Assembly (NCBI GenBank): GCA_050246755.1
Contig: JBFWVL010000004.1
Location: 128,001-192,000, forward strand
DNA length: 64,000 nucleotides
Direction: 5' to 3'
Origin: Bacteriovoracia bacterium
GTDB taxonomy: Bacteria > Bdellovibrionota > UBA1018 > CAIPTA01
Position 1 is the stretch's first letter, and every line of letters begins with the position of its first letter. Of this stretch, positions 14,106 through 38,885 are shown in pieces. Below the pieces are notes generated by a model. The model saw only the letters and a program-made list of their open reading frames with translations, was not told the DNA's origin and ran no database searches. The position numbers and the translations under genes are program-made.

Positions 14106-16618
14106 TATAGCTGTCCACCTTCCTGGGGAATAACCGCGGGAGCAGCGCCGCCGTTATCATACTGCGGAGGCTCACCGATATTGGGCTGGGGAGCTTCCAT
14201 CGGGGGCAGCGGGATCTGACCGCCGTCCGGTGGGTAATAGAACGCGTTCGGATCGTAGTTCTGGTCGTCGTCGTCGCGGTCCGGGCCGGAAGGCGTATTG
14301 ATGGAGGTGCTTTCCACGGCTCTAGCTTGGGGCAGGGGCTCGATCACGGTGAGCTCGGGCAAGCCTTGCTTCATTTTGTCGAAGCGCTTGAAGAACGGAT
14401 CTCTAGAGCCCATATTTTCGCGCACGAAATCGTCATGATCGTCGATACGGCGGTTCAGTACTTTGCGGATCTGATCGTACTGCTTAATGATCCGCGGGGT
14501 GATGAATACCATGAGATTCGTTTTTAAAACCTCAGCCTTCGAATTCTTGAAAAGCCATCCGAGAACCGGAATATCGCCGAGGAGCGGAATCTTGCTAATA
14601 ACTTCGGTGGACTTATCGCGAATCATCCCGGAGAGAACCACTGTATCTTCACTCTGCACGAAAACCTTCGTATTGGTGGCACGAGTATTTTTTCCCACGC
14701 TTTTCCCTTGAATTGCGGTGGGAACGTTGGTGGGGTCGAAGTTTTCCATCTTTTGGTTAATATCGAGCTTCACGAAGTTCGATCCTTTATTAATCTGCGG
14801 GGTAACCTCTAAAAGCAGCTCTGCATTTACGTTTTCAAAGGATGTCGTGGTCACATTGTTGATGGTGGTAGCCTTTTCTTGTGGAGACTGCTCCGAAACT
14901 TGGAAGACGGCCTTTTCATTATCCATGGCAATGATCTGCGGGGTGGCCACTACGTTTGCATCGCCATTAGCCTGGAAAAGCTCAATCAAGCCATTGAGGC
15001 TATTGAATTTCGTGTCTACTCGGTTAGCCCCCGTTCCGATCGAAGGCCCTGGTTTTTCTGGGCCGTGCTTAAATCCAAGAACAAAACCACTAGTGATCGG
15101 GTTGCCCGCAAGCAATGAGGTAAGCGCGCCGCTCGCCGAGGGAAGGGCGATCCCGTTCGAGCCGGAAATAAAGGAGGTACCGTAGTTATGTCCGCGATTG
15201 AGCGTCATCTCCATAATGAGAGCTTCGATGAAGACCTGATCGCGGGGAACATCAAGAACCTCGATCACTTTCTTGAAGGCCGCGAAATCGGCGGGCGAGG
15301 CCTGCACGATCAAGGACTGCGTGGTTTTATCGGCGCTTACTTTCAGCTCGCCCGAAAATGCGCTCGAGTTCTGCTCGCCGAATACCGGGAAGGCCCGGTT
15401 TTGGTTCCGCTGGCCGGAGCCGGTGGTCACGGTGGAAAGGGTTTTCGCCAAAGTTTCCGCGTCGGCGAACTGCAGGCGGATCACATGGATGCGGCCCTGA
15501 TTCGTGGTAGCGGCGGCGCGTTGGTCGAGGCGGCGCACGAGGGCGCGGATTTCCTGGATGCCGGCGGCATTGGCCTTCACGATGAGCGCGTTGGTGCGGT
15601 CGTCGGCGATGATCTTGCTGATCGAAGATCCACCGGAGCGGCCACGGCTACTCGTGCGGGCGGCAGCCCCGTAGGTGGGTTGAGGACGGCCGGGGGCGCC
15701 GAACTGCGAGCCGGTGCCGCGGCCTTCATTGAGGATTTGCTCGATTAACTTGGCAATTTCTTTGGCCACGGCGTTCTTGATCGGCACCACCACGAGGGAT
15801 TCCTGGTAGCCGGCCACATCGAGTAGGTTCACGAGCTCCACCATGCGGTTAATGTGGCTGGAGGTATCGGTGATGATGATCGTATTGGTTTGGGCGTAGG
15901 CCTGCATCCGGGATTCGCGCGGGATCCAAAGGCGGAAGGCTTGCTCGAACTCGGTGGCGTCGATGTAGCGGAGGGGAACTACGCGGGTGATGAACTCGTC
16001 GTTGTTGGGCGCTTTTTTGTCGGTATAGATCGGAGTCTGTTTTTCCTTGGCGCTCGCGAGGCGTTCGATCCGCAGGTATTTGCCGGAAGGAACGAGGGCG
16101 AAGCTGCGCATGTTGAGGGCGGTGAGGAAGGCGTTCCAAGCATCACCCACGGTGATCGGAGTTTGTGAGACCACCGAGATACGGCCCTTGATGTCCTGGG
16201 GATTATAGATGAAGTTTCGGCCGGTGAGCTTCGAGATGGCTTTCGCTACGTCGAGGATCTCGGCATCGGGGTAATCGAAATTCTCCACGATCTCTTTGGA
16301 AGTGGCGGGAGGAAGGCGGTTATTGGCGGTATTGGCCGCTACGGTTCCGCCGCCGGAGGGTGCGCTGCCGCCGCCTACCGAGGAACGGGGAGGAAACGCA
16401 CTGGTGGAAGGACGGCTGGTGGGAGCATTGGTATGCGCGGGCGCGAAATCGTCGCCATCGCCATCCTCGAAATCGTCGCTATCGTCGAAGGGGTTGCTGA
16501 GGCCTTCGGAATTTCCGGGCAGGTTCGAAAAAGGATTCGGTGGCAAGGGTGGCGGATCTTCGGCGCGCGCGGTGCTCGCTAGAATCGTGAGGAGCAATAT
16601 TTTGCTAATGGTCTTCAT
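14105..16618 (-). CDS. gspD: Type II secretion secretin D
   Basis: N0-N3 domains, QVFIEALIME and KIPLLGDIPVLGWLFK secretin signatures. Confidence 0.95.
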   Translation of the reverse strand: MKTISKILLLTILASTARAEDPPPLPPNPFSNLPGNSEGLSNPFDDSDDFEDGDGDDFAPAHTNAPTSRPSTSAFPPRSSVGGGSAPSGGGTVAANTANNRLPPATSKEIVENFDYPDAEILDVAKAISKLTGRNFIYNPQDIKGRISVVSQTPITVGDAWNAFLTALNMRSFALVPSGKYLRIERLASAKEKQTPIYTDKKAPNNDEFITRVVPLRYIDATEFEQAFRLWIPRESRMQAYAQTNTIIITDTSSHINRMVELVNLLDVAGYQESLVVVPIKNAVAKEIAKLIEQILNEGRGTGSQFGAPGRPQPTYGAAARTSSRGRSGGSSISKIIADDRTNALIVKANAAGIQEIRALVRRLDQRAAATTNQGRIHVIRLQFADAETLAKTLSTVTTGSGQRNQNRAFPVFGEQNSSAFSGELKVSADKTTQSLIVQASPADFAAFKKVIEVLDVPRDQVFIEALIMEMTLNRGHNYGTSFISGSNGIALPSASGALTSLLAGNPITSGFVLGFKHGPEKPGPSIGTGANRVDTKFNSLNGLIELFQANGDANVVATPQIIAMDNEKAVFQVSEQSPQEKATTINNVTTTSFENVNAELLLEVTPQINKGSNFVKLDINQKMENFDPTNVPTAIQGKSVGKNTRATNTKVFVQSEDTVVLSGMIRDKSTEVISKIPLLGDIPVLGWLFKNSKAEVLKTNLMVFITPRIIKQYDQIRKVLNRRIDDHDDFVRENMGSRDPFFKRFDKMKQGLPELTVIEPLPQARAVESTSINTPSGPDRDDDDQNYDPNAFYYPPDGGQIPLPPMEAPQPNIGEPPQYDNGGAAPAVIPQEGGQL

Positions 16619-30423: not shown

Positions 30424-30505
30424 GTAGCGGTAACGGCTAACGCGACGCTTCTCCGTAATCGTGTATTGGCTGGGGGTGCTTGCTTCAAATTGAAATCAGT
30501 GGTTC

Positions 30506-30539
30506 TATAAATATGATAATTATAGTTATCATATTTATA
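30506..30539. repeat. 34-bp palindrome, candidate tyrosine recombinase target or operator site
   Basis: TATAAATATGATAA-TTATAG-TTATCATATTTATA: perfect 14-bp arms, asymmetric 6-bp core, separated from the recombinase ATG by one base. Confidence 0.8.
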
Positions 30540-30540
30540 T

Positions 30541-31632
30541 ATGCAGTTTTGGCATCAAATTCAGTCCTGGCTAGGGTCCCTTATCTCCAGATGGCGAGCC
30601 TCTAAGCAATCACCAAGAAGGGTAGTGCCCACCCTTCATCCCTTTGTTTCAGAAGAAGCATTTGATTCCGGGCTTCCCCAAGTTTTGGAACCAACACTTC
30701 AAGAGCCTTGGCTAAAGGGTGAGATTATCCAGGAAATGCAGCGATTCCTGCAGGGGCAACGTTCTCCCCATACCAAAAGGGCCTACGAAAACGATTTGAA
30801 GCAGTTCATCGGCTACTTGCGTGCAGCTAGTCAATCCGGGGAATCTTTCGATGCGTTATTGGCCTACCGAGACTGGTTGGTACTGGAAAAAAGCGTGGGC
30901 GGGCCGGAGCTCTCGCGTACTTCCGCGAATCGAAAGTTCGCCACGGTCCGGAGTTTTCTTACCTGGCTGCAGGCAAGGGGAAAGGTAAGCCAGAATCCTT
31001 CGCTTTGGATCAAAAACTACCGGGCCCAAACTGAATCTCCCACCCAAGCCTTTAGCGATGCCGAAGTAGCGCAGATGCTCGCGCTACCGAATCAGAAATC
31101 TTCCTCCGGCCTCATGCACGCCGTAATCCTGCATTTTCTTTTTTTCTTAGGATTACGCCGGGGGGAGATCGTGGCGCTGAAAGCCAGCCATTTGGGGTGG
31201 AGCCGAGCGGGAGAGCATACCGTGCTCACCGTGAGGGTTCCCGGAAAAGGCGATAAGGAAAGAATCCTGCCTTTGCCGCTTAAGATGCAGCCCATCCTCC
31301 TGCGTTACCTCGAGCGCAGGCAGTTGGCGGTTGGCGATGAGCAGTATCTGTTTTCCCCGGTGCGAAATAATATTACCGGCGTAAAGAGCAAATCCATCGA
31401 TGCACAGTCGATTTACTATATTGTGAAAAAATACGCCGAAGCGGCGGGGATCATGAGGCGGGTAAGCCCTCATTCTTGCCGGGCCACCGCGATCTCCAAT
31501 GCCCTCGACCACGCCGCTTCTCATCGATCGGTGCAGCAGATGGCCGGCTGGAGTTCGCCGCTTATGATTGCCCGCTACGACAAACGCCGTACCGACCTAC
31601 AGCACTCCGCGGTGCATCTGGTGGACTACTAG
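30541..31632 (+). CDS. Tyrosine recombinase/integrase
   Basis: SAM-like core-binding domain (SPHTKRAYENDLKQF); catalytic residues R (GLRRGE), K (GKGDK), H-x-x-R (PHSCR), W (AGWSS), Y (ARYD). Confidence 0.93.
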   Translation: MQFWHQIQSWLGSLISRWRASKQSPRRVVPTLHPFVSEEAFDSGLPQVLEPTLQEPWLKGEIIQEMQRFLQGQRSPHTKRAYENDLKQFIGYLRAASQSGESFDALLAYRDWLVLEKSVGGPELSRTSANRKFATVRSFLTWLQARGKVSQNPSLWIKNYRAQTESPTQAFSDAEVAQMLALPNQKSSSGLMHAVILHFLFFLGLRRGEIVALKASHLGWSRAGEHTVLTVRVPGKGDKERILPLPLKMQPILLRYLERRQLAVGDEQYLFSPVRNNITGVKSKSIDAQSIYYIVKKYAEAAGIMRRVSPHSCRATAISNALDHAASHRSVQQMAGWSSPLMIARYDKRRTDLQHSAVHLVDY

Positions 31633-36274: not shown

Positions 36275-36736
36275 TCAGTCGCCGGCTACCATTTTACGGG
36301 CGGAGTCTTCACAGAGAACTTTTCCGTTTAGGGTCAAGCGGACCACGAACGTGCCGTCTTCGTATTTTTCGCCGAATACGTCTCTGCCCTTATCGAAGTT
36401 CTCTACTAGGCGATAGTTTTTATTGTCTTTCCAGCTTTGCGCGGCGGTGGCCCAGTCTTTTTTCTTCGTAGACTGCGCTTTTTTGCCCTTGGTGGCCGAG
36501 ATTTCCAATTTTACTTTTGGGTCTTCGCCGGCTTTTACCAGGAGGCCTTCAAATCCCGCATCGGGTGACCATTCTCCCATATCGAAGATCGAAACCTTTG
36601 TTACGAGTTTTCCCTCAACGAGCTCTTCGTATTCATTGAACGCTTGCACGCGCTTACCGCAAGTTTCGGTCTTCGCCATCGCGGGCACGGAAAGAATCAA
36701 CAATGCCAAAACGGCGACTAAGGTAATTCTGGGCAT
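36275..36736 (-). CDS. Secreted hypothetical protein
   Basis: Signal peptide (AMA); overlaps the 3' end of the upstream endopeptidase gene. Confidence 0.7.
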   Translation of the reverse strand: MPRITLVAVLALLILSVPAMAKTETCGKRVQAFNEYEELVEGKLVTKVSIFDMGEWSPDAGFEGLLVKAGEDPKVKLEISATKGKKAQSTKKKDWATAAQSWKDNKNYRLVENFDKGRDVFGEKYEDGTFVVRLTLNGKVLCEDSARKMVAGD

Positions 36737-38037
36737 ACTTTAGGATCCACCTTTAGATTGGCGCACACGTTCCGCGTTACCGCGGAGGGCGGGAAACAGG
36801 CATGAATATGGTTGCTGTGGTTCGCGAGAGGCCGGGTGCCTAAGCTAGTATCGTTGAAAAAGAGCTGCCCAGTATTTACGCCTTTGGATTTTAGGAGATT
36901 AATCAATTTGCGGGCCATCGCTTTGTCGTAGCCCGAGTCCGTATAGTTCACTGGTGAATCCGCAAATCCGCCTTTGCGCGGAGGCCGGATATCTATGCAG
37001 TAACCCTGTGTGTGCGAGCGATGGGAGTTGAAAAGAGGGCGGGAACGGTCGGAGATGTCGCCGAACTGCAATGTGCAGCCCGCACGGTCCGGGCAAATTT
37101 TTCTCCAGTCCTGAAGTACCGAAATGAGCACGCAGGCGGTAACCGGATTAGCATAAACGTCGTTGCCCACTGGTTGATCGGGCTGGTAGTGGTTCGATCC
37201 ACAGGGAGCTACGTTACCGCGTCCCAGGAGAGGAATTTGCACGAGGCCACGATTCGTCTTCAGCCCGGCTCTGGAGGCACGGGGATTTTTAATCAAAGCC
37301 TGCAGCGAAGCTACGAAAGTGCTGGGCTTCGGAACCGTGGGGGCCGGAGGAATAACCGGAGCCGGCGTGGGATCCATGTCGCTGATGCGAGTGCCGATCG
37401 CATTGCTCACGCTGGTCATGGCGTTCACGGCGGAATCGCTGCGTGCTCGATTGCAACCGGCGCCGTTGCAGTCCGGCACGTTATCCGGTGGCGTGGTGGA
37501 AGGGCGCACAATCTGCGGTAAGGAAACTAAATCGGCCGCCGCCGCGGCTCGCGCCTTAAGATAATTTTTCGACACCCAGCCTTGGTTCGGGCATCCACGG
37601 ATAGCGTTGGGGAGCTTTACCTTGATGAAAGTATTTACTCCGTGTACTACCGCGCGATCTGCGGTGGGAATGAGTTTCGTGCCTTTCGGCAAAGCGCATT
37701 CGTAACTTTCTTCGGAAAGATTCGGTGCCGAGCGGAAGCTGAGGCCCTCGGTGTCGACTTCCGTGGTGGCCGCGGAAGCTTTGGCTTTTATGTAGGCCGA
37801 ATGAACGAAACCTTCGGCTGGGCATCCCCGGGCATTTACTTTAACCTTGATCCAGTCGGAATCGGCGCGCCCGGTGGCGATCAACTCGGATCCTCGGCTT
37901 ACTTCGCAGAGAATCGCGCCACCGGCCGTTCTTACGTTTAGTCCGCTGGACGTGACGGTGACGGTTTGGTCCGCCAGAGCGGTGAAGCTCATACCGAAAA
38001 TTCCAAGGGCGATAAAAAGGTTCGCGGGAAATGCCAT
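36718..38037 (-). CDS. Secreted SH3b-repeat protein with MepA-like (penicillin-insensitive) murein endopeptidase domain
   Basis: Two SH3b-like units (GLNVR..GFVHSAYI; GLSFR..GWVSKNYL), Pro-rich linker, GDIS..HRSHTQGYCIDIR..HSNHIH LAS-type metal ligands. Confidence 0.8.
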   Translation of the reverse strand: MAFPANLFIALGIFGMSFTALADQTVTVTSSGLNVRTAGGAILCEVSRGSELIATGRADSDWIKVKVNARGCPAEGFVHSAYIKAKASAATTEVDTEGLSFRSAPNLSEESYECALPKGTKLIPTADRAVVHGVNTFIKVKLPNAIRGCPNQGWVSKNYLKARAAAAADLVSLPQIVRPSTTPPDNVPDCNGAGCNRARSDSAVNAMTSVSNAIGTRISDMDPTPAPVIPPAPTVPKPSTFVASLQALIKNPRASRAGLKTNRGLVQIPLLGRGNVAPCGSNHYQPDQPVGNDVYANPVTACVLISVLQDWRKICPDRAGCTLQFGDISDRSRPLFNSHRSHTQGYCIDIRPPRKGGFADSPVNYTDSGYDKAMARKLINLLKSKGVNTGQLFFNDTSLGTRPLANHSNHIHACFPPSAVTRNVCANLKVDPKVCPELP

Positions 38038-38110
38038 GGCTATAAATCGGAATAGGCTGGGCTTAACTTGAGAGCAATGGGCCGGCAAGCCTGCTTATCG
38101 AATACCCATG

Positions 38111-38138
38111 ATGTCGGATAAGATATATTATGTTTGGT
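38111..38138 (+). other. dif-like Xer recombination site (candidate replication terminus)
   Basis: ATGTCGGATAA-GATATA-TTATGTTTGGT, an 11-6-11 layout matching the dif core ATAA-N6-TTATGTT. Confidence 0.6.
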
Positions 38139-38177: not shown

Positions 38178-38885
38178 ATGAAACCCCTAAGCTTACTAGC
38201 TATTGCGGCCTGCTTACTCTCCGCCGTTTCCGCTTTCGCCGAACCGGATAACTTGGTGAGCGTGATTAACCGCGATCTGCACGACGATACCGATCTCCTG
38301 CCGCGCCAGTTTCTCAAGCGTAATCACGGCACCAACGTGGTTCTCAATGAACACGAAATGGCCTGCTTCGAGCGGCAAAAAAAGGAAATGGACGATGCTT
38401 CCAAAGATGCGGAAGTGAAACAAAAGCTGAAAGAACTCAAAGTTCCGCGGATGACGTTCCACCTGATATCTGGTGCGAAAGACCGCGGCGTGAATTTCAA
38501 CTGGAATACCCCCCGCCGCTATAATTCCCCGGGTGGAAATTACCTTATCGTGAAGTTCGGCATGAATGGCGGCCGCTGCTATTTCAGCTCGGCTACCGAT
38601 ATCAAACGCCGCGTGATCGACGGAAAAAGCCGGAAATTGGGCCGAATGATCGTGATGGAAGACGGCACGATGATGACGGCTCAAGAAGCCGCGGCGGCCA
38701 AAGTTAAAGCGGTTGAGGCGGCCAAGGAAAAACAAGCCGTAGCGGCTGGCTCCTTATTTCGCGCGCCCGCCAATGCAGTGCAAGTTACTCCGCCTAAACC
38801 CAGGGCGGCCCCGGTGGTGAATGAAGAAGATAGTTCCGAGGATAGCGAAGAAGTACCCGTTACTTTATCGGAGGATCCACAGTAG
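38178..38885 (+). CDS. Secreted hypothetical protein
   Basis: Signal peptide (AFA); Ala/Pro-rich acidic tail. Confidence 0.7.
   Translation: MKPLSLLAIAACLLSAVSAFAEPDNLVSVINRDLHDDTDLLPRQFLKRNHGTNVVLNEHEMACFERQKKEMDDASKDAEVKQKLKELKVPRMTFHLISGAKDRGVNFNWNTPRRYNSPGGNYLIVKFGMNGGRCYFSSATDIKRRVIDGKSRKLGRMIVMEDGTMMTAQEAAAAKVKAVEAAKEKQAVAAGSLFRAPANAVQVTPPKPRAAPVVNEEDSSEDSEEVPVTLSEDPQ

Follow-up and report, generated by a model that had tools for sequence, protein, structure and literature searches.

A third Xer-family recombinase gene with a candidate dif-like site of its own near the replication terminus of a Bdellovibrionota genome

The locus

We examined a 64,000-nt stretch of DNA (the window), which is C4:128001-192000 of a 3.55-Mb, 10-contig metagenome-assembled genome (G000) that the names of its closest database relatives place in the Bdellovibrionota. 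It holds an intact open reading frame (ORF) of 363 codons for a tyrosine recombinase and, separated from its ATG by a single base (T at 30540), a 34-bp palindrome, TATAAATATGATAA-TTATAG-TTATCATATTTATA (Table 1). The original prediction, made from the letters of the window, had described the two as a Cre-like recombinase with its own site, domesticated near the terminus. The palindrome, which it had called all but perfect, proved to have 14-nt arms that are exact reverse complements flanking an asymmetric 6-nt centre; one base further inward the pairing is lost (T at 30520 against G at 30525). The site can be read as 14-6-14 or 13-8-13, and its dif-like inner arms, ATAA and TTAT, favour the 6-bp centre.

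Table 1. Coordinates of the features discussed, in positions of the window
Feature	Position	Strand	Evidence and details
Promoter-like site TTGAAA-16-TATGAT	30490-30517	+	-10 hexamer 30512-30517 inside left arm; consensus scan, 10/12 positions
34-bp dif-like recombination site (candidate)	30506-30539	.	Left arm 30506-30519, asymmetric centre TTATAG 30520-30525, right arm 30526-30539
Xer-family tyrosine recombinase, 363 aa	30541-31632	+	Pfam PF02899 (SAM-like N-terminal domain) and PF00589 (catalytic domain); catalytic R206, K236, H311, R314, W337 (31549-31551) and Y346 (31576-31578)
N-terminal predicted helix, residues 2-21	30541-30603	+	AlphaFold2 secondary structure; followed by disordered linker, residues 21-53 (predicted local distance difference test, pLDDT)
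Canonical XerCD-type dif, ATGTCGGATAA-GATATA-TTATGTTTGGT	38111-38138	+	Intergenic, classical layout; kept in relatives
Polarity flip of KOPS-like G-rich octamers (KOPS, FtsK-orienting polar sequences)	29973-50485	.	Marks replication terminus

On both strands of the window, with up to 3 mismatches allowed, the palindrome occurs at one place (0 matches in 100 dinucleotide-preserving shuffles), in agreement with the earlier remark that no second copy was noticed. Its 22-nt core is found once in the genome, and the next-best match (C1:1809353) has 2 mismatches and lacks matching flanks. The looser pattern ATAA-N6-TTAT has just 29 occurrences genome-wide, the palindrome among them. Single-recombinase Xer/dif systems pair a low-G+C site of 28–34 bp, with inverted arms, a short centre and one copy per chromosome, with a two-domain tyrosine recombinase that has its full catalytic set; the locus shows both, the set being R-K-H-R-W-Y.

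These six catalytic residues are invariant across 18 aligned homologues, and the motif QQMAGWSSPLMIARY is present. W337, the Trp that had been noticed at the last catalytic position before the tyrosine, takes the place of the conserved second His in the alignment to E. coli XerD, and it is matched to the Trp of P1 Cre when the two proteins are compared directly by BLASTP. It is kept in 30/30 class-level orthologues, and it replaces the second His of the R-K-H-R-H-Y set that characterizes XerC/XerD equivalogs. The AlphaFold2 model of the 363-aa protein has a mean pLDDT of 78.1.

Around the gene, Pfam identified Lnt, a subtilase, a peptidase S51, aminopeptidase N and the 2-oxoglutarate dehydrogenase E1 component. 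A Pfam scan of these neighbours found no phage, plasmid or insertion sequence (IS) genes adjoining the recombinase, as the original prediction had noted; its description of a stand-alone chromosomal recombinase/site pair, rather than mobile cargo, holds. The upstream orf287 was weighed as a possible accessory factor but set aside, because its N-terminus looks like a signal peptide, it matches no family and only two families keep it in synteny.

Gene start and N-terminus

Two observations bear on where the protein begins. The gene caller used in the protein collection starts it at residue 29 (P0002, 335 aa). ATG 30541 is nevertheless favoured as the true start, because in orthologues the frame is open from the ATG just past the site and their cationic, aromatic N-terminal helix is kept. 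In most close orthologues the ATG lies 11 nt after the right-arm TTAT, without a Shine-Dalgarno sequence; the others have a GGGG-type ribosome site and an ATG within 25 nt of the right arm. This spacing suggests that the mRNA is leaderless or has a very short leader. A consensus scan of the region returned 2 promoter-like sites against 1.0 expected, so the promoter assigned in Table 1 is weak evidence.

The first ~20 residues are poorly conserved in sequence, and most homologues have a cationic, aromatic-rich segment there. The window with the highest hydrophobic moment falls within the first ~10 residues in 12/18 homologues; four proteins, among them the one studied here, have it in the basic stretch next to this segment (starting at residue 15–21), and two more score low. 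From these properties, the cationic, aromatic-rich amphipathic N-terminus (30541-30700) may serve as a membrane tether.

Placement of the recombinase in the Xer family

To NCBIfam models the protein scores 135.8 bits for XerC (TIGR02224; cut-off 335.15), 121.9 for XerD (TIGR02225; 329.6), 91 for archaeal XerA (NF040815; 220) and 39.2 for XerS (NF003462; 267). A profile of the 18 homologues, searched against all PDB sequences, matched XerD (1.4e-25), XerA (2.4e-19), XerH (3.4e-6) and an integron integrase, and reached no Cre chain at E<=1. Pairwise identity is 30% to the XerC of the same genome (E 2e-23) and 29% to its XerD; to P1 Cre it is 21% over 194 aa (E 0.009 in a two-sequence comparison), and no recognisable sequence kinship to Cre was found. 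In a quick maximum-likelihood tree the family forms one clade (Shimodaira–Hasegawa-like approximate likelihood ratio test, SH-aLRT, 98) that joins XerC and XerD of the same genome (90) and is separate from Cre and the phage-type integrases; long branches were flagged in this tree, and the NCBIfam model scores stand in for XerS, XerH, XerA and E. coli XerC/D, which it does not contain. Foldseek with the AlphaFold2 model gave XerA as the best match (1.4e-11), with Cre structures among the top ones (6e-10). The fold gives no discrimination between Xer and Cre, because XerA, Cre, XerD, XerH and lambda integrase match about equally well (Xer, Cre, lambda Int and IntI all at 1e-8 to 1e-11).

Since model scores, PDB profile, pairwise identities and quick tree all point to Xer, we conclude from sequence comparison that the recombinase is a distinct Xer-family paralogue, and that Cre, with which it has the Trp and a site length of 34 bp in common, is an analogue in function and not a relative. 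The label Cre-like is therefore dropped: by profile and by pairwise comparison the protein falls among the Xer proteins, and both the inner arms ATAA/TTAT and the 6-nt centre are dif-like.

Two side observations came from these searches. PDB entry 9i5v chain 14 (401 residues) matched the recombinase family at 2.6e-13 (single sequence) and 4.1e-21 (profile); its label, ribosome-associated inhibitor RaiA, was probably meant for another chain. Two phage-type integrases of G000 (C6:51486-52688 and C5:239133-240338) are closely related, with tree branches of 0.1 and 0.45, which suggests two copies of a related integrative element.

Conservation of gene and site among relatives

The gene has one match per genome in 41/61 relatives (E<=1e-40) and in 106/301 genomes sampled across the phylum. 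The order lnt-S8-orf287-(site)-gene-S51-pepN is shared by two families. Whether the palindrome is kept beside homologues had been named in the original prediction as a way to refute it, and kept it is. The motif GATAA-N6-TTATC lies upstream of the gene in 12/30 loci examined, and these comprise every orthologue of at least 47% identity with upstream DNA (12/12; one further locus is cut at a contig end). W-type orthologues of other classes, that is, those carrying the Trp, have a related site upstream in 4/4 loci. Searched over whole genomes, the pattern GATAAKTWTAVTTATC has exactly one copy in 15/61 genomes and none in the 20 genomes without the gene (0/20), and its reversed control gave one match. 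Every copy shares its contig with the gene and is oriented as the gene is, with the site of G034 listed as inverted.

The arms differ between lineages in a coordinated way. Three variants were found: ATGATAA/TTATCAT (…ATATGATAA / TTATCATAT…), ACGATAA/TTATCGT (…ATACGATAA / TTATCGTAT…) and GTGATAA/TTATCAC (…TTGGTGATAA / TTATCACCAA…). Both arms change together, as the binding of one protein, a homodimer, to both would predict. The centre conforms to N-T-W-T-A-N throughout, and GTTTAA is identical in four families.

The site could instead be simply an autoregulatory operator of the gene, with catalysis taking place elsewhere, at other sites or on incoming DNA. Its overlap with a promoter-like element and its position right beside the start codon fit this idea, as does its single copy per genome, which leaves no intramolecular reaction. 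Four genomes tell against it: a site with the same centre is kept 9.6 kb from the gene with four ORFs between them (G026), at 2 kb (G057) and 1.6 kb (G028), and at 4.5 kb in the opposite orientation (G034). Separation of this kind, together with the identity of the GTTTAA centre, argues against a mere operator; spacer identity over four families is unusual for operators, closeness to the canonical dif (see below) is kept while local synteny changes, and no alternative candidate site for the enzyme was found in the genome. We therefore regard an operator-only role as very unlikely.

A second alternative is a domesticated integrase whose chromosomal attB captures or releases an episome (a phage, plasmid or integrative element) with a matching site on it. 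A tyrosine recombinase gene beside its own site is typical of integrative elements, and phage or IS genes flank roughly one dif site in four (PMC2731167). Here, however, the neighbours are housekeeping genes in conserved synteny, each genome across the phylum that has the gene has one copy, and none holds a second copy of the site or a clear hybrid site. Contigs from three sequencing runs cross both the palindrome and the canonical dif without joints or insertions; a strain ~94% alike is collinear over both sites, and its 14-kb contig spans the palindrome uninterrupted. Among viral contigs the 22-mer of the window had 0 matches. An 18-mer consensus matched 14 of them, which were considered as partner sites and rejected; we read these matches as chance, because they have no extended arms, no homologue is nearby and all are low in G+C. 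Little probability is thus left for an attachment site, about as little as for an operator.

In metagenomes the strict 32-nt site pattern had 0 matches. A 20-mer was found at 7 loci, two with an adjoining homologue and one at a contig end; for the other four, no homologue lies within the surrounding DNA examined.

Two variants of the site deserve mention in their own right. Loci L025 and L026 have a third copy of the right half-site (AATTATCA), a direct repeat 7 nt past the site, and in that family the extra half-site may be an accessory binding arm. On contig C48 of G026 (~16481-16519, L146), an isolated right arm with centre (…TTAATTTAGTTATCACTAAT…) lacks a proper left arm, and could represent either a chance match or the hybrid site of a past integration.

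Relatives with His in place of Trp

In one family of the phylum (f21), homologues at 36–39% identity keep the C-terminal RYDKRR...VDY signature of the recombinase family, with His in place of Trp. XerH, XerA and XerL enzymes also have His where the window family has Trp. No palindrome was found within 3 kb of these H-type genes at any of the four loci (L171, L172, L173 and L178, in genomes G217, G193, G097 and G208). In three H-type genomes that are 99–100% complete, the family member is itself the best match to the Xer subfamily model, at 137–157 bits, and no protein reaches the subfamily cut-off of 279 bits. Two genomes of another family have a W-type gene together with two strong Xer matches (the top one above 279 bits, the second at 266–267). 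This distribution suggests that the family is able to serve as its host's only Xer, and that a linked site and coexistence with XerCD accompany the Trp form. A search for the dif of the H-type genomes did not find one, generic palindrome counts being no higher than in the reversed control.

A classical XerC/XerD-dif-FtsK system in the same genome

Eleven proteins of the genome match the integrase domain, and two of them are real Xer proteins. XerC (C1:281376-282305) scores 337.7 bits, above the equivalog cut-off of 335.15; XerD (C1:686905-687777) scores 319.7 bits on the XerD model and passes the Xer subfamily cut-off. The recombinase studied here is not a bona fide XerC or XerD, both of which are encoded elsewhere; the original prediction had said that it would be refuted if the protein were one that acts only at dif. 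FtsK with its gamma domain is also encoded. A canonical dif lies 7.6 kb downstream of the palindrome, between divergent ORFs (36718-38088 on the minus strand and 38178-38885 on the plus strand), and is another of the 29 ATAA-N6-TTAT sequences. It closely resembles TCTTCTGATAAGTTATATTATGTAACGG, predicted by Carnoy and Roten to be the dif of Bdellovibrio bacteriovorus HD100 (PMC2731167). The site recurs in relatives, where it is conserved and single-copy, and XerD orthologues are found in 48/61 of them; in five genomes of other classes the canonical dif pattern gave no convincing match. The recombinase of the window is consequently not its host's only Xer system, since XerC, XerD, FtsK-gamma and a canonical dif are all there. 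Given the presence of XerC, XerD and FtsK, it is best seen as an addition to the classical system and not as a replacement of the XerS/difSL type.

Position at the replication terminus

Strand-biased octamers were learned on contig C1, which holds an origin-type skew switch at ~1.32 Mb. The top ones include GGGAAGGG (78:12) and GGGCAGGG (61:14), which have the shape of E. coli KOPS. On C4, a hand-picked set of KOPS-like motifs counts 54 forward and 6 reverse before 160 kb, and 6 forward and 26 reverse after it, with a density that climbs towards the site; GC skew falls from ~+0.08 to about zero at 160 kb. C4 carries the palindrome at 158.5 kb and, further along, the canonical dif at 166.1 kb. 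Contig 1 of the relative G009 (1.875 Mb) has positive skew in 9/9 sampled 20-kb windows from 1 to 720 kb and negative skew in 11/11 from 745 kb onward; its canonical dif lies at 721.6 kb and its palindrome at 733.7 kb. Palindrome and canonical dif share a contig in eight genomes, 7.3–63 kb apart, and in two further relatives the gene is 3.5 and 14 kb from a canonical dif-like sequence. This proximity is kept even though local synteny is limited to the two nearest families. The palindrome thus also lies where single-recombinase dif sites lie, at the replication terminus, as KOPS convergence, the skew switch of G009 and the nearby dif indicate; the original prediction had placed it near the terminus, and KOPS-like convergence and GC skew bear this out.

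The roles of the two sites might be the other way round: the palindrome and its recombinase would carry out the main dimer resolution, and XerC/XerD with the canonical-looking site would be secondary or have another task. Several observations fit such a reversal. The recombinase is better conserved than XerD within the genus (65–70% against 52–59% identity) and in G009 (57% against 48%); the skew drop of C4 is nearer to the palindrome than to the canonical dif; and in three genomes of another family no Xer-like gene was found besides the H-type member. Yet the canonical site is likewise conserved and single-copy, XerC exceeds its equivalog cut-off and XerD passes the subfamily cut-off, and at the threshold used the third gene is missing from 20/61 relatives against the 48/61 in which XerD is found. 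We judge this reversal of roles to be improbable.

Proposed function

From the anatomy of the locus, its conservation and single-copy status, the terminus position, the co-variation of the arms and the integrity of the catalytic set, we infer binding, recombination with its direction and control, and autorepression. The Xer-family paralogue would bind as a homodimer to the two 14-bp arms (inner motif GATAA/TTATC) and would then recombine two copies of the 34-bp site across the 6-bp asymmetric centre. Because there is one site per chromosome, only sister copies could be partners. The single site, its location at the terminus, its dif-like layout and the intactness of the catalytic set together suggest recombination between sister chromosomes; the expected job would be the resolution of sister chromosomes (dimers or multimers) or the unlinking of catenanes, alongside the XerC/XerD-dif-FtsK system 7.6 kb away. 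Since the site overlaps the gene's promoter and 5' end, the occupied site would also be expected to repress the gene. We give this reading, a second, single-recombinase, terminus-specific module that acts between sister chromosomes and represses itself, a probability of roughly 0.55.

A number of findings weigh against it. The complete set of XerC, XerD, FtsK-gamma and dif leaves no obvious need for a second resolution system. At E<=1e-40 the gene went undetected in 20/61 relatives and is therefore not universally required. GATAA-N6-TTATC is present in 0/17 more distant loci, for which 1.35–1.6 kb of upstream DNA was searched in 16 and 1.0 kb in one (L030), and a k-mer search near distant orthologues returned coding-sequence words only. 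The promoter call behind autorepression is a weak match to the consensus. Rightward of the site, C4 has a GC skew of about zero and not a negative one, and skew and KOPS together fail to tell whether the palindrome or the canonical dif is nearer to the true terminus. Finally, contig C3 of G000 has, at ~120–135 kb, a second plus-to-minus switch of GC skew with a weaker KOPS-like flip. No dif-like site stands out near this switch, which could reflect an inversion, an assembly join or a second replicon.

A bolder version of the sister-chromosome module would make it an FtsK-independent unlinking machine: a homotetramer, tethered to the membrane or closing septum through its cationic amphipathic N-terminal helix, that acts on its own palindrome next to dif and resolves the multimers and catenanes of multi-copy filaments before synchronous septation, with the H-type enzyme as the sole Xer of a sister lineage. 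We consider it unlikely.

Whichever task it has, the module is found in about a third of the genomes sampled from the phylum, and it raises the question of why one lineage should have two terminus recombination sites. The best-studied members of the lineage replicate many chromosome copies in one filament (PMC11318664). The available parts of that review of Bdellovibrio chromosome biology mention only an in-silico dif and xerCD. A search of the full-text literature, whose coverage excluded supplements (e.g. Table S1 of PMC2731167, which possibly lists extra Xer-like genes) and subscription journals, turned up no description of a third Xer that has a site to itself next to dif; the arrangement, kept across the phylum, is thus apparently undescribed. 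The family also holds a natural experiment in His and Trp, with a linked site in the W-type and none in the H-type. If the enzyme needs no host factor, it would possibly be a compact new recombinase with a 34-bp site for genome engineering.

Comparison with known systems

The single-recombinase Xer systems in the papers cited here stand in for XerC/XerD; here the module is kept beside an apparently complete XerCD-dif-FtsK system. XerS/difSL resembles it in that a single Xer-like recombinase gene adjoins a dif-like site in a terminus module (PMC5357621, PMC2731167). XerS, however, replaces XerC/XerD, whereas the present module coexists with XerC, XerD and a canonical dif, and difSL has 31 bp with an 11-bp centre and unequal arms, compared with a 6-bp centre and equal 14-bp arms here. 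XerH/difH of Helicobacter and Campylobacter, XerA/dif of archaea and XerL/dif of Legionellales likewise combine one recombinase with a roughly palindromic dif at the terminus, and difH can adjoin its gene (PMC2731167). XerA is the best structural match by Foldseek and the second family in the sequence-profile search after XerD, two XerD entries being counted once. Unlike the module described here, XerH, XerA and XerL are the sole Xer systems of their hosts, in place of XerC/XerD (PMC2731167, PMC5357621, 10.1101/2021.09.12.459815).

With XerC/XerD-dif-FtsK the module shares the fold and domain pair of the enzyme and, in the site, ATAA/TTAT arms, a 6-bp centre, low G+C, an intergenic location and the terminus. 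There, two proteins act on unlike arms, whereas here one protein is predicted to act on two like arms. The enzyme further differs from XerC and XerD in its Trp for the second His, an N-terminal extension of ~60 residues, the linkage of gene and site, and scores far below the equivalog cut-offs. Like Cre/loxP, the module consists of one recombinase and a 34-bp inverted repeat around an asymmetric centre, and its enzyme has Trp at the same catalytic position. The loxP site is read as 13-8-13, with staggered cuts 6 bp apart within the 8-bp spacer, and the sequence of the palindrome would allow either this division or 14-6-14. But Cre/loxP belongs to a phage/plasmid, whereas this module is chromosomal and terminus-specific, with a dif-like inner arm motif.

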